DNA of 16,938 nucleotides from positions 1-16,938 of IMG/VR virus record IMGVR_UViG_2728369593_000023; one strand, given 5' to 3'. The position numbers were made by a program. Every line of letters starts with the position of its first letter. Position 1 is the stretch's first letter. The stretch comes from a virus (Duplodnaviria > Heunggongvirae > Uroviricota > Caudoviricetes). Below are positions 3,001 to 9,000 of this stretch, piece by piece.

Positions 3001-6000
3001 ACGGTATTGCACAGAATATGGCGGCGATGCTGACCGGTGCAGAGGCAGACTGGCGGGGATTCACCCGTTCGGTGCTGTCCATGATGACAGAAATCCTGCT
3101 TAAACAGGCCATGGTGGGCATTGTCGGGCGTATCGGCAGCGCCATTGGCGGTGCTTTCGGTGGTGGTGCATCTGCTTCCTCGGGGACGGCCATTGAGGCT
3201 GCGGCGGCGAACTTCCATTTCGCGACCGGAGGATTTACGGGGACGGGCGGCAAATATGAGCCTGCGGGGATAGTTCACCGCGGGGAGTTTGTTTTCACGA
3301 AAGAGGCAACCAGCCGGATAGGTGTGGGGAATCTTTACCGTCTGATGCGCGGCTATGCGGAAGGTGGTTATGTGGGTGGTGCCGGAAGTCCGGCGCAGAT
3401 GCGGCGGGCGGAAGGTATTAATTTTAATCAGAACAATCACGTGGTGATTCAGAACGACGGTATCAACGGACAGGCGGGGCCGCAGCTGATGAAGGCGGTG
3501 TATGACATGGCCCGCAAGGGGGCGCAGGATGAGCTCCGGCTGCAGTTGCGTGATGGCGGTATGTTATCAGGGAGCGGGCGATGAAAACATTTCGCTGGAA
3601 AGTGAAGCCGGATATGGAGGTGAACTCGCAGCCATCGGTGCGTGAAGTGCGTTTTGGTGACGGGTACTCACAGCGTATGGCGGCAGGGCTGAATGCTGAC
3701 CTGAAAACATACCGTGTGACGCTTTCCGTGACCCGGGAGGAGGCCCGGCATCTGGAAGCGTTCCTGGCAGAGCACGGAGGCTGGAAGGCATTTTTGTGGA
3801 AGCCACCCTATGCATACCGGCAGATAAAGGTGACCTGTGCCGGGTGGTCTGCGCGGGTCGGGATGTTGCGCGTTGAGTTCAGCGCGGAGTTTAAGCAGGT
3901 GGTGAACTGATGCAGGATATTCACGAAGAAAGTCTGAACGAGTCGGTTAAATCAGAGCAGTCACCGCGGGTGGTACTCTGGGAAATCGACCTGACGGTAC
4001 AGGGTGGTGAGCGGTATTTTTTCTGCAATGAGCTGAATGAAAAAGGGGAGGCGGTTACCTGGCAGGGGCGGCAATATCAGGCATACCCGATTGACGGCAG
4101 TGGCTTTGAGATGAACGGGAAGGGCAGCAGTGCCCGCCCGTCGCTGACGGTGTCGAATCTGTTCGGTCTGGTCACCGGAATGGCGGAGGACCTGCAGAGC
4201 CTGGTGGGGGCCACGGTGGTCCGCCGCCGGGTGTATGCCCGTTTTCTGGATGCGGTGAATTTTGTGGCGGGCAATCCGGAAGCGGACCCGGAGCAGGAGC
4301 TGAGCGACCGCTGGGTGGTGGAGCAGATGTCAGAGCTGACGGCCATGACAGCCTCGTTTGTGCTGGCAACACCGACGGAGACGGACGGAGCGCTGTTTCC
4401 CGGTCGCATCATGCTGGCGAACACCTGTATGTGGGATTACCGGGGAGATGAATGCGGGTATAACGGTCCTGCGGTGGCGGATGAGTTCGATAAACCCACC
4501 ACCGATATCCGTAAGGACAGATGCAGCAAGTGCATGCGCGGGTGTGAGATGCGCGGCATGGTGGCTAATTTTGGCGGTTTCCTTTCCATTAACAAACTTT
4601 CGCAGTAAATCCAATGACACAGACAGAATCAGCGATTCTGGCGCATGCCCGGCGGTGTGTGCCTGCGGAGTCGTGCGGCTTCGTGGTGAGAACGCAGGAG
4701 GGGGAGCGGTATATCCCTTGTGTGAATATCTCTGCAGAGCCGGAGGCGTATTTTCGTATTGCACCGGAAGACTGGCTGCGGGCAGAGATGCAGGGGGAGA
4801 TTGTGGCACTGGTCCACAGTCATCCCGGTGGTCTGCCCTGGCTGAGCGAGGCCGACCGGCGGCTGCAGATAAAAAGTGCACTGTCCTGGTGGCTGGTCTG
4901 CCGGGGGGAAATTCATAAATTCCGCTGTGTGCCACATCTGACCGGGCGTCGTTTTGAACACGGGGTGACGGACTGTTACACGCTGTTCAGGGATGCCTGC
5001 CATCTGGCGGGGATAACGCTGCCGGATTTTCACCGCGAGGATGAGTGGTGGCGCAATGGTCAGAACCTGTATCTGGACAATATGGAGGCCACTGGTTTTT
5101 ACCGGGTGCCCCTGTCCTCGGCACAGGCAGGCGATATCCTGCTGTGCTGCTTTGGCGCATCGGTACCCAACCATGCTGCCATTTACTGCGGCAACGGTGA
5201 ACTGCTTCACCATCTGCCTGAACAACTGAGTAAACGGGAGAGGTATTCCGAAAAATGGCAACGACGAACGCATTCTGTCTGGCGTCACCGCCACTGGCAC
5301 GTATCTGCCTTCACGGGGATTTACAACGATTTGGCCGCCGCCTCAGCCTGTATGTGAACACGGCAGCGGAAGCCATCCGTGCCCTGTCGATGCAGATGCC
5401 GGGATTCCGCCGTCAGATGAACGAAGGCTGGTACCAGATACGTATTCGCGGTGAGGACACGGCACCGGAGGCGGTGTACGCCCGTCTTCACGAACAGCTG
5501 GGTGAGGGAACGGTCATCCACATTGTGCCGCGACTGGCCGGGGCCGGAAAGGGTGGACTGCAGATTGTGTTGGGGGCGGCAGCCATCGTGGGCTCTTTCT
5601 TCACTGCCGGGGCATCAATGGCGTTATGGGGTTCAGCCCTGGCAGCCGGTGGTTTTTCTGCCACCACGATGCTGTTTTCACTTGGAGCCAGCATGATACT
5701 GGGCGGTGTGGCTCAGATGCTGGCCCCGAAGGCTAAAGTACCGGAGTACAAAAGCACGGATAACGGCAGACAGAACACGTACTTTTCCTCGCTGGATAAC
5801 ATGATTGCACAGGGGAACCCGATGCCGGTGCCTTACGGTGAAATGCTGGTTGGCTCACGGCGAATCTCCCAGGACATCAGTACCCGTGATGAAGGCGGTG
5901 ACGGGAAGGTGGTGGTTATCGGGCGGCAGGCATAAAAGCGAAAAAATCCCGCAGTGACCGAAGGCTGCGGGAACAGAAAATGAAGATTAACCACAGGGAG

Positions 6001-9000
6001 TTTTGTTTTTATTGGCCCGAAAAAACTGTAACGCCCGGGAATGATATCTGCCACGGGGGCGTACAGAAAATGTGAAGATATTCAGAATTTTTATTCAGTC
6101 ATGATACAGGCATCCTCCGGGATGCCTGTTGTTTTTGTGCGTAACAGTTATCACAGTAAAGGGTGAGACAATGGGCAAAGGTGGCGGCAAGGCGCACACG
6201 CCGGTAGAGGCAAAGGACAATCTTAAGTCCACGCAGATGATGAGCGTGATTGACGCCATTGGTGAAGGGCCGATTGAAGGTCCGGTGAAGGGGTTGCAGA
6301 GTATCCTGGTGAACAAAACCCCGCTGACGGACACGGACGGTAATCCTGTGATACATGGTGTGACCGCGGTCTGGCGCGCCGGGGAGCAGGAGCAGACACC
6401 ACCTGAAGGCTTTGAGTCCTCCGGGGCGGAAACCGCACTGGGCGTGGAAGTGACGAAGGCAAAGCCGGTGACGCGCACCATTACATCCGCGAACATTGAC
6501 CGCCTGCGGGTCACCTTCGGGGTGCAGTCACTGGTGCAGACCACGTCAAAGGGTGACCGAAACCCGACATCCGTCCGCCTGCTGATTCAGTTACAGCGTA
6601 ACGGTAACTGGGTGACGGAAAAGGATGTCACCATTAACGGCAAGACCACCTCGCAGTTTCTGGCGTCGGTGATTCTGGATAATCTGCCTGAGCGGCCCTT
6701 TAACATCCGGATGGTCCGGGAGACAGCGGACAGCACCTCGGACCAGCTGCAGAATAAGACGCTCTGGTCGTCATACACCGAAATCATCGATGTGAAACAG
6801 TGCTACCCGAACACGGCGATTGTGGGGCTGCAGGTGGATGCGGAGCAGTTTGGCGGTCAGCAGATGACGGTGAACTACCATATCCGCGGTCGCATCATCC
6901 AGGTACCGTCAAACTATGACCCGGAAAAACGCACTTACAGCGGCATCTGGGACGGCAGCCTGAAACCGGCATACAGCAACAACCCGGCCTGGTGCCTGTG
7001 GGACATGCTGACTCACCCGCGCTACGGCATGGGAAAACGTCTGGTGGCGGCGGATGTTGACAAGTGGGCGCTGTATGCCATCGGGCAGTACTGCGACCAG
7101 ACGGTCCCGGATGGTTTCGGGGGCACAGAGCCGCGGATGACCTTTAATGCGTACCTGGCACAACAGCGTAAGGCGTGGGACGTTCTCAGTGATTTCTGCT
7201 CTGCGATGCGCTGTATGCCGGTATGGAACGGTCAGACGCTGACGTTCGTTCAGGACCGCCCGTCGGATGTGGTGTGGCCGTACACCAACAGCGATGTGGT
7301 GGTGGATGATAACGGCGTGGGATTCCGCTACAGCTTCAGTGCCCTGAAGGACCGGCACACGGCGGTGGAGGTGAATTACACCGACCCGCAGAACGGCTGG
7401 CAGACCTCCACGGAACTGGTGGAAGACCCGGAAGCCATACTGCGCTACGGACGCAACCTGCTGAAGATGGACGCGTTCGGCTGCACCAGCCGCGGTCAGG
7501 CCCACCGTGCCGGACTGTGGGTGATAAAGACCGAACTGCTGGAAACGCAGACGGTGGATTTCACGCTCGGGTCACAGGGGCTGCGGCACACACCCGGTGA
7601 CATCATTGAAATCTGTGATAACGACTATGCCGGGACCATGACCGGCGGACGTATCCTGTCCATCGATGCCGCCACCCGCACCCTGACACTGGACCGTGAA
7701 GTGACACCTGCCGGAGACAGGTGCCCGCCACGGTGAACCTGATTAACGGCAGCGGTAAGCCGGTGAGCGTGGCCATCACTGCACACCCCGCGCCGGACCG
7801 GATACAGGTCAGCACCCTGCCTGATGGTGTGGAGACATACGGTGTATGGGGACTCTCCCTGCCGTCACTGCGCCGTCGCCTGTTCCGCTGTGTCTCCGTC
7901 CGGGAAAACACGGACGGCACCTTTGCCATCACGGCGGTGCAGCACGTACCGGAAAAAGAAGCCATCGTGGATAACGGTGCCCGCTTTGAGCCGCAGTCAG
8001 GTTCCCTGAACAGCGTCATCCCACCGGCAGTGCAGCACCTGACGGTGGAGGTGAGCGCAGCTGACGGCCAGTATCTGGCGCAGGCGAAATGGGACACGCC
8101 GCGGGTGGTGAAGGGTGTGCGCTTCAGTCTGCGCCTGACCAGTGGTAAGGGAACGGATGCCAGACTGGTGACCACCGCCATCACCGCAGACACGGAGCAC
8201 CGTTTCAGCGGCCTGCCGCTCGGGGAATACACCCTGACGGTGCGGGCGATAAACAGCTATGGCCAGCAGGGTGAACCTGCCACCACCACCTTCCGGATTG
8301 CCGCACCGGCAGCACCGTCGCGGATTGAGCTGACGCCGGGCTATTTTCAGATAACCGCCACGCCGCATCTTGCCGTTTATGACCCGACGGTACAGTTTGA
8401 GTTCTGGTTTTCGGAGACAAAAATCGCAGACACATCTCAGGTGGAAACCTCTGCCCGTTATCTGGGGACCGGCAGTCAGTGGAGTGTATCCGGCCCGCAC
8501 ATTAAGCCCGGGAAGGATTTCTGGTTTTACGTGCGCAGCGTCAACCTGGTGGGGAAATCTGCTTTTGTGGAAGCCAGTGGCCGGGCCAGCAATGATGCAG
8601 AAGGGTATCTGGGGCTGTTTCGGGAAAAAATAGGAAAACTGCATCTGGCTCAGGGGCTGTGGGAGCTGATAGACAACAGCCAGCTTGCGGATGAGATGGC
8701 GGAGATGAAGACCTCCATCACCGAAACCCGCAATGAAATCACACAGACGGTCAGTAAAACGCTGGAGGACCAGAGCGCCACCATACAGCAGATACAGCGC
8801 GTGCAGAAGGACACAAATGATGACCTTGCTGCACTTTACATGCTGAAGGTACAGAAAACAAAAAATGGCATACCCTATGTTGCCGGTATTGGAGCGGGGA
8901 TTGAGGATACTGATGGCCAGCCCCTGAGCAACATACTGCTGCTGGCTGACCGTATTGCGATGATTAACCCGGAGGACGGCAACACCACGCCGTTATTTGT

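Follow-up and report, generated by a model that had tools for sequence, protein, structure and literature searches.

The stretch analyzed here (the window) comprises all 16,938 nt of IMG/VR record IMGVR_UViG_2728369593_000023, a member of the Caudoviricetes, and its subject is the intergenic spacer between tail genes I and J. As judged from its sequence, this spacer carries a new allele of the Hfq-dependent small RNA (sRNA) family to which PasB of enteropathogenic E. coli (EPEC) and EcOnc22, EcOnc23, and EcOnc24 of enterohemorrhagic E. coli (EHEC) belong, predicted to have its own promoter and its own terminator. Taken as a whole, the spacer is very probably best explained as an sRNA moron cassette with a CRP-like operator, followed by a hairpin (hairpin 2) that is an element of the junction with J.

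The window is the tail region of an EHEC/EPEC-type lambdoid prophage, in which the tape measure gene is followed by M, L, K, I, J, lom, and the tail-fibre gene, and then by NleG-family effector genes. The stop codon of I (TAA) lies at 5933–5935 and the ATG of J (MGKGGGK...) at 6171, so that the spacer occupies 5936–6170 (235 bp); its G+C content is 0.443, against 0.59 in I and in the first kilobase of J. The first-pass annotation had described an unusually long AT-rich spacer with two hairpins, and its length, composition, and both structures were confirmed: hairpin 1, with an A-run, at 5948–5971, and hairpin 2, with a T-run, at 6106–6137. The accompanying remark that I and J are adjacent in lambda was roughly right, the gap being 60 bp in lambda and 14–52 bp in other lambdoid phages. 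When the whole spacer was folded on the plus strand, the z-score was −2.96, and the surrounding 700-bp region contained three terminator-like sites against 0.8 expected from shuffled sequences. In RefSeq, the spacer carries no annotated feature in O26 11368 or E2348/69.

An sRNA gene on the minus strand of the I-J spacer

A covariance model (R1) was built from 22 family variants that included no sequence of the window type, which we call type A. R1 matched the window on the minus strand from 6022 to 5940 over its full length (model positions 1–80 of 80; 56.2 bits, E-value 1.9e−9). The same model recovered PasB at its published coordinates (4262–4343 of locus L002, from E2348/69), and family references scored 75–96 bits. 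Together with the alignments, this match places the type A gene on the minus strand from approximately 6018/6019 to 5940. The predicted RNA, of approximately 80 nt, is 5′-(C)GGGCCAAUAAAAACAAAACUCCCUGUGGUUAAUCUUCAUUUUCUGUUCCCGCAGCCUUCGGUCACUGCGGGAUUUUUU-3′, and type A begins with CGGGCCAAUAAAAAC. Over the RNA, the window allele is 75% identical to PasB and 73% identical to EcOnc22, and the entire spacer shares 88% identity with its I-J counterpart in prophage PP6 of E2348/69. As in the rest of the family, the gene lies in the I-J spacer on the strand opposite to the tail genes. A search of Rfam returned no match, either for the spacer region at E ≤ 1 or for the whole window at gathering thresholds.

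Hairpin 1 is the predicted Rho-independent terminator of this gene (5941–5971, minus strand). It consists of CCCGCAG-N10-CTGCGGG at 5948–5971 (stem 5948–5954/5965–5971), preceded by six A residues at 5941–5946, so that on the minus strand the hairpin is followed by a U-run; folded alone, it has a free energy of −17.4 kcal/mol. Across 22 variants, the two halves of the stem pair in 100% of cells, with one compensatory change from G-C to A-U. The length and sequence of the loop vary within the family, and the U-run has 6–8 U residues, with six A residues encoding it in the window. The stop codon of I lies 5 nt beyond the end of the U-run. The first-pass annotation had called this hairpin terminator-like on the minus strand, as we do, and had stopped short of concluding that a minus-strand gene ends there.

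Directly 5′ of the terminator lies the conserved seed region UUAAUCUUCAU (5980–5990, minus strand), with its core AUCUUC at 5982–5987, which is unpaired in the predicted fold. Its complement, GAAGAT, is unchanged in all 11 spacers collected with blastn and is nearly invariant among 35 unique sRNA variants. Zhu et al. (2026; bioRxiv 10.64898/2026.05.13.724894) placed the seed of PasB at the equivalent position. A second motif conserved among the family variants, CUCC(C/U)U, is found at 5995–6000 on the minus strand. All family members have in common a G/C-rich 5′ end, an A-rich stretch, CUCC(U/C)U, the seed (U)AAUCUUC(A/G)U, and the terminator.

Published homologues are expressed and Hfq dependent

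PasB of EPEC O127:H6 E2348/69 is an 83-nt RNA transcribed from 1466343 to 1466261 on the minus strand of NC_011601, between E2348C_1436 and E2348C_1437 (Pearl Mizrahi et al. 2021, PMC8550237). In RefSeq, E2348C_1436 is I (ending at 1466255) and E2348C_1437 is J (starting at 1466496) of prophage PP6; PasB therefore lies inside the 240-bp PP6 I-J spacer, antisense to the tail genes. The probe used for PasB, AATCCCGCAGTGATCGCGGAGCT, resembles window positions 5944–5965. In the tables of that study (PMC8550237), the RNA-seq base mean of pasB is 482 in Dulbecco's modified Eagle medium (DMEM) and 1082 in overnight lysogeny broth (LB), with I at 4.8 and J at 15. Deletion of hfq changed pasB by a log2 fold change of −6.8 in DMEM and −2.4 in overnight LB. 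RIL-seq recorded 37 interactions of PasB, and in nearly all of the chimeras PasB occupies the second position, as is characteristic of sRNAs.

EcOnc22, EcOnc23, and EcOnc24 were described as Hfq-CRAC peaks in prophages Sp15, Sp14, and Sp11, respectively, of EHEC O157:H7 Sakai, and gave a northern band of approximately 85 nt that was destabilized in the hfq deletion mutant (Tree et al. 2014, PMC4104026). In the Sp15, Sp14, and Sp11 I-J spacers, the tail-sense sequence that directly follows hairpin 1 is identical to the first 23 nt of their probe, GGGAGAGAACGATGAAGATTAAC; the 3′ remainder of the probe sequence, as extracted from a PDF, differs, and an exact search of Sp15 with the probe found no match at up to two mismatches. 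Because the probe is the tail-sense strand, the detected EcOnc RNA is antisense to the tail genes. Taken at face value, the published coordinates of the peaks would fall closer to J; they refer to an older Sakai sequence, and a shift of approximately +136 nt to the current Sakai record, calibrated on AsxR, puts the CRAC peaks on the body of the sRNA.

The window allele shares with PasB the I-J slot, the antisense orientation, the terminator stem, the seed core AUCUUCAU, the −10 pattern, and the CRP-like block and its distance, and the two RNAs are similar in length (approximately 80 versus 83 nt). They differ in the 5′ third of the RNA and in the bases flanking the seed, and the range of targets may differ with them; the region between the CRP-like block and the −10 element is also unrelated, and forms a hairpin (6031–6061) in the window type only. 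EcOnc22–24 have the same slot, strand, and architecture as the window allele. The family and its location between I and J are thus already published, and the novelty in this respect is modest. The link between PasB and EcOnc22–24 appears in neither paper: Table S6 gives no homologue from EHEC in its entry for PasB, and the available text of the 2026 preprint does not mention EcOnc. This link, the allele series, the tandem arrays, and the CRP hypothesis described below go beyond the two reports.

AgvB and AsxR, anti-sRNAs of EHEC prophages, were considered as a possible identity of the window RNA. They are likewise short Hfq-dependent prophage sRNAs, from the same study as EcOnc22–24; however, they lie at the PR′ moron site downstream of Q rather than in the tail operon, and they share a conserved 3′ region and have Rfam families of their own. 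Identity with them was rejected because of this different genomic position and the lack of an Rfam match at E ≤ 1.

By analogy with PasB and EcOnc22–24, the window allele would be expressed and Hfq dependent and would act on targets in trans. The sRNA would be made in lysogens in which the tail genes are silent, stabilized by Hfq, and engaged as the sRNA partner in Hfq-bound RNA-RNA pairs, presumably pairing through the conserved single-stranded seed region just 5′ of the terminator.

Distribution, allele series, and tandem arrays

With blastn, the spacer was found in 147 phage records, of which 135 align to 80% or more of the query. Among 5426 complete E. coli genomes, 1330 carry it, the median being three copies per genome. 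Most of the phage records are Stx1a-, Stx2a-, and Stx2c-converting phages; many are complete genomes of Stx-converting phages, some with named propagation hosts. Identical copies of the spacer occur in O157:H7 (for example, PV15-279), O26:H11 (for example, 11368), O121:H19, and other serotypes. The published PasB surveys give 24 phage hits, apparently near-identical variants only, compared with the 147 phage records of our whole-spacer search. From IMG/VR, phage records, and genomes, we gathered 132 junctions (83 unique), among which there were 35 distinct sRNA variants of 76–87 nt, falling into approximately 8–10 types.

Several IMG/VR prophages carry tandem arrays of two to four PasB-family modules, approximately 220 bp apart, between I and J (L071, 322–1180; L061, 4418–5075; L154, 1–704). 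Each module in these arrays has a terminator, a promoter, and a CRP-like core of its own. In L071, which has four modules, the covariance model matches three, and a module at approximately 770–905 has a different terminator stem, CTCCCGT.../...ACGGGAG. Two loci bear labels of distant hosts, L007 (Streptomyces flavalbus) and L008 (a Clostridiales metagenome-assembled genome); their J proteins are 96–97% identical to that of this E. coli prophage, and the labels probably reflect contamination in those assemblies.

A conserved promoter architecture with a CRP-like site

The candidate −10 element of the sRNA gene is TACAGT at 6025–6030 on the minus strand, preceded by GCGT, and predicts a +1 at approximately 6018–6019. 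Its pattern, T-A-n-n-n-T, is kept in all variants and in all tandem modules. In E2348/69, the TAnnnT element predicts a +1 at position 4343 of L002, and the reported 5′ end of PasB is at 4344. A second candidate −10 element, at 6041–6046 on the minus strand, reads TATCAT in the window and TATAAT in most other alleles; it would give a transcript approximately 16 nt longer, and it is degenerate in one tandem module of L071.

Upstream of these elements lies a CRP-like palindrome, AAATGTGAAGATATTCAGAATT (6067–6088), with the core TGTGA-N6-TCAGA at 6071–6086 and its center at 6078.5. The core matches the CRP consensus TGTGA-N6-TCACA at nine of ten half-site positions, and the window contains two such sites with at most one mismatch, against 0.61 expected. 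Conservation within the spacer is highest not in the sRNA but in AAATGTGAAGAnnTTCAGAAnTTTTAT (6067–6093), which covers this block. Among the alleles, the half-sites are invariant and the N6 varies. The core and GCGTTA lie 36 nt apart in nearly all junctions (35 nt in a few), even though the intervening sequence is unrelated between allele types. When loci were collected by way of the terminator, the core was found 123–132 nt away in 78 of 98 unique segments, the remainder being mostly unrelated phages. In the tandem arrays, of which L071 is an example, every sRNA module has its own CRP-like core, whereas hairpin 2 occurs once, adjoining J, which indicates that the CRP-like block belongs to the sRNA gene and not to J or to a sense-strand RNA.

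The center of the CRP-like site lies at −60.5 from the predicted +1 (6018) and at −59.5 to −60.5 from the reported 5′ end of PasB. Class I CRP sites are 22 bp long, are centered near −61.5, are accompanied by a weak −35 element, and mediate activation by cAMP-CRP; Spf is an example of an sRNA that is repressed by CRP. In EPEC, PasB is more abundant in overnight LB than in glucose-containing DMEM, and Spf shows the opposite behavior (PMC8550237), a circumstantial argument for activation of PasB by CRP. The position of the CRP-like site suggests that cAMP-CRP may control the sRNA. On the minus strand, the cassette would run from the CRP-like operator (6086–6071) through a weak −35 region and the −10 element (6030–6025) to the sRNA gene of approximately 80 nt and its Rho-independent terminator, and cAMP-CRP bound approximately 60 bp upstream of the start would activate transcription of the sRNA, tying it to the carbon status of the cell.

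Several points weigh against this reading. There are two candidate −10 elements for the promoter of the window sRNA, the +1 is predicted, and the −35 region of the window allele is poor. The center of the CRP-like site is 1–2 bp off the textbook class I position, and if the upstream element TATCAT were used as the −10, the center would be at −44.5, a spacing not known to activate. LB and DMEM also differ in growth phase, such that the comparison does not isolate an effect of CRP, and neither PasB paper (PMC8550237; bioRxiv 10.64898/2026.05.13.724894) mentions CRP or a promoter. With regard to the sRNA itself, there being no matching Rfam model, family membership rests on our own covariance model and alignments.

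Further features of the promoter region were noted. In the window-type allele only, the region that separates the CRP-like site from the −10 element contains a third hairpin, ACGCCCGG...CGGGGGCGT (6031–6061, −14.6 kcal/mol). This hairpin overlaps the promoter spacer region, and UUACAGUUUUUU follows it on the minus strand. This middle hairpin and the repeat ACAGAAAATG..AAGAT had suggested a second PasB-like unit at 6040–6106 on the minus strand. This candidate was rejected: the covariance model gave only 9.6 bits there (E-value 2.5), the CRP-like site accounts for the repeat, and the hairpin is confined to the window-type allele. A reading of TGGCA as part of a sigma-54 promoter was rejected by eye, there being no −12 GC element at the right spacing. 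Four other loci (L145, L157, L159, and L165) carry PasB-like genes with other DNA substituted for the region that precedes the GTTAA(T) −10 motif; they have neither the CRP-like core nor TATAAT and represent natural promoter-swap variants.

The I-J slot as a site for RNA and protein morons

In E. albertii prophages and two closely related loci (examples are L006, 213–743, from E. albertii, and the near-identical contig L008), the sRNA cassette is replaced by a gene for Cu/Zn superoxide dismutase (sodC; Pfam PF00080, E-value 4e−32), directly upstream of J on the opposite strand. The slot therefore takes protein or RNA cargo in the same orientation. Like the window sRNA, the sodC moron is cargo upstream of J transcribed against the tail genes; unlike it, it encodes an enzyme rather than an RNA, and the two are unrelated in sequence. 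Of the suggestions made in the first-pass annotation for the spacer, that of a small moron holds with regard to the moron, although the cargo is a minus-strand RNA gene and not a protein. The spacer is very probably a functional and widespread non-coding moron rather than a remnant.

As a wider proposition, which we put forward tentatively and at somewhat less than even odds, the I-J slot may hold a self-contained cassette, composed of CRP site, promoter, sRNA, and terminator, that has passed from phage to phage, diverged into at least 8–10 allele types while keeping its seed constant, and been amplified to tandem arrays of up to four genes. On this view, PasB and EcOnc22–24 would represent two alleles of a single large family, which would convey the cAMP status of the host to a prophage-directed post-transcriptional control, perhaps acting also on the I-J late mRNA.

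An action mainly in cis is the strongest of the alternatives, but we regard it as unlikely. The minus-strand RNA would pair with leaky or early I-J late mRNA and trigger cleavage between I and J or damp J, as a safeguard on, or for the timing of, tail-tip synthesis, and trans targets would be secondary. The RNA is indeed perfectly complementary to the I-J part of the late mRNA, the gene is always antisense within the late operon with its terminator abutting the stop codon of I, and a partial second complement of the seed (ACAGAAAATG-TG-AAGAT, 6061–6080) is present on the plus strand upstream of J. However, this second copy is accounted for by the CRP-like site, a further copy of which accompanies each sRNA module, and the presence of sodC in the same slot and the same antisense orientation makes the orientation seem a property of the slot rather than of an antisense mechanism. 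The 37 interactions of PasB in RIL-seq are Hfq-dependent and in trans, and many lambdoid phages have no such RNA.

Hairpin 2 belongs to the junction with J

Hairpin 2 (6106–6137, plus strand) resembles an intrinsic terminator, with a 10-bp stem at 6106–6129, the loop TCCG, and then TGTTTTTG to 6137. Its GC-rich stem-loop followed by a T-run has the sequence characters of an intrinsic terminator on the plus strand; folded alone, it has a free energy of −19.3 kcal/mol, and it ends 34 nt before the start codon of J. Its pairing is preserved in 98.6% of cells over 14 variants, with one pair changed from C-G to U-A. It is present once per junction, even where sRNA modules are in tandem. Between it and J lies the ribosome-binding region of J, AAAGGGTGAG (6158–6173 including the ATG at 6171, plus strand), and the annotated J genes of O26 11368 and E2348/69 lie at the corresponding position.

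Comparable hairpins stand in the short I-J gaps of other lambdoid phages. The 60-bp gap of lambda contains ACCGCC-TGCG-GGCGGT followed by TTTTGT, and the 52-bp gap of HK140 (HK022-like) contains GGCCACC-TTCG-GGTGGC followed by TTTTTT; no such hairpin was found in the gaps of Erwinia phage 49 (32 bp) and mEp554 (14 bp). The lambda and HK140 hairpins resemble hairpin 2 in being GC-rich, on the sense strand, followed by a T-run, and situated 20–35 nt before the start of J. They differ in that their gaps of 52–60 bp contain nothing else and that their stems are unrelated to it in sequence. To our knowledge, no function has been assigned to either. On account of these equivalents, we read hairpin 2 as the older J-proximal junction and the sRNA cassette (approximately 5936–6095) as an insertion: hairpin 2 is not part of the cassette and belongs to the J junction, and the non-coding moron would have inserted between the stop codon of I and this older I-J junction.

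In lambda, the polymerase modified by Q overrides intrinsic terminators during late transcription. Hairpin 2 would most probably keep stray sense transcripts from extending into J in the absence of Q, whereas the Q-modified enzyme would read through it; alternatively, it may serve as a 3′ stabilizer after processing of the mRNA. The first-pass annotation had also suggested a structure attenuating read-through into J, which is possible for hairpin 2 only; the equivalent hairpins of lambda and HK140 and the ability of Q-modified polymerase to override terminators count against it.

We also considered that hairpin 2, with the conserved block upstream, might be the 3′ end (approximately 6137) of a tail-sense sRNA, derived either from the 3′ part of the I transcript or from a promoter in the spacer, which might sponge the minus-strand sRNA. 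Its U-rich stretch, GC hairpin, and U-run resemble a canonical Hfq-binding 3′ module, there is complementarity between the block AAAUGUGAAGAU and the seed AUCUUCAUUU, and convergent sRNA pairs and anti-sRNAs are known in such prophages. Nevertheless, a promoter scan and manual inspection found no sigma-70-like promoter on the plus strand, and in tandem arrays the block repeats with each minus-strand gene, whereas hairpin 2 does not. In addition, no plus-strand Hfq peak is listed at the Sakai I-J spacers (PMC4104026), and the available parts of the EPEC tables contain no intergenic feature for E2348C_1436/1437. Such an RNA is unlikely, more so than an action of the minus-strand RNA in cis.

At approximately one-third of the junctions, a different right-hand module is present, with other hairpins and T-runs at the position of hairpin 2. 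In L017 (530–757, from the PPompW phage), L007, L009, and approximately one-third of the IMG/VR junctions, a longer J-proximal module replaces hairpin 2. This module has two hairpins, AAAACCCCGGTATC-TGCT-GATACCGGGGTTTCTCTTT, which looks bidirectional, and GCATG...CATGC, after which comes TTTTCGGG; the module might hold a further small RNA.

Coding and remnant explanations

It is very improbable that the spacer codes for a small protein. Two open reading frames (ORFs) do exist, one on the plus strand at 5980–6075 (31 amino acids, MKINHREF...) and one on the minus strand from 6054 to 5833 (73 amino acids), and a 32-amino-acid hypothetical protein is annotated in the spacer of one phage. However, the ATG is changed to ACG in several alleles, the Sakai alleles differ from the window ORF after the start, the allele lengths (76–87 nt) differ by numbers that are not multiples of three, and the minus-strand ORF crosses the terminator hairpin into I. 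A protein-coding moron was rejected because no ORF is conserved among homologous spacers. Equally improbable is a functionless, decayed remnant of a mobile element, an origin raised in the first-pass annotation to which the low G+C content relative to the flanks, the mosaic alleles, and an insertion sequence element adjoining the spacer in one phage would be congenial, because the spacer is widespread in phages, including complete phage genomes, and in E. coli genomes, its homologues are expressed, and the seed, the terminator, the −10 element, and the CRP-like half-sites are kept at fixed spacing in alleles that are otherwise 66–75% identical.

Neighboring genes in the window

In the window, J (6171–9649) is split into two ORFs, 6171–7736 and 7721–9649. 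Compared with O26:H11 11368, in which J is intact, the window has an additional base at each of positions 7706 and 7724. None of the 5426 complete E. coli genomes has these extra bases, the best match being 98.0% over 251 nt. Either J is a pseudogene specific to this strain, or the sequence contains an error. The J genes of Sakai Sp14 and Sp15 are split too, elsewhere in the gene. Downstream of the tail-fibre gene lie four genes for NleG-family type III effectors (12104–16165; three on the plus strand and one on the minus strand) and an ORF of the IpaB/EvcA family (16348–16938). The effector genes at 12104–16938 form a typical effector exchange locus of EHEC/EPEC lambdoid prophages.

Implications for prophage sRNAs

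Prophage sRNAs rewire host regulation in EHEC and EPEC. PasB, EcOnc22–24, and the window allele form one family in a fixed slot of the tail operon, present in approximately one-quarter of complete E. coli genomes and often in multiple copies. For annotation, this means that a “long I-J spacer” in lambdoid prophages should be marked as an sRNA gene. The constant seed and the varied flanks of the alleles provide a natural series for the mapping of targets, and the conserved CRP-like operator at a fixed distance offers a concrete and cheaply testable hypothesis on when the sRNA is synthesized.

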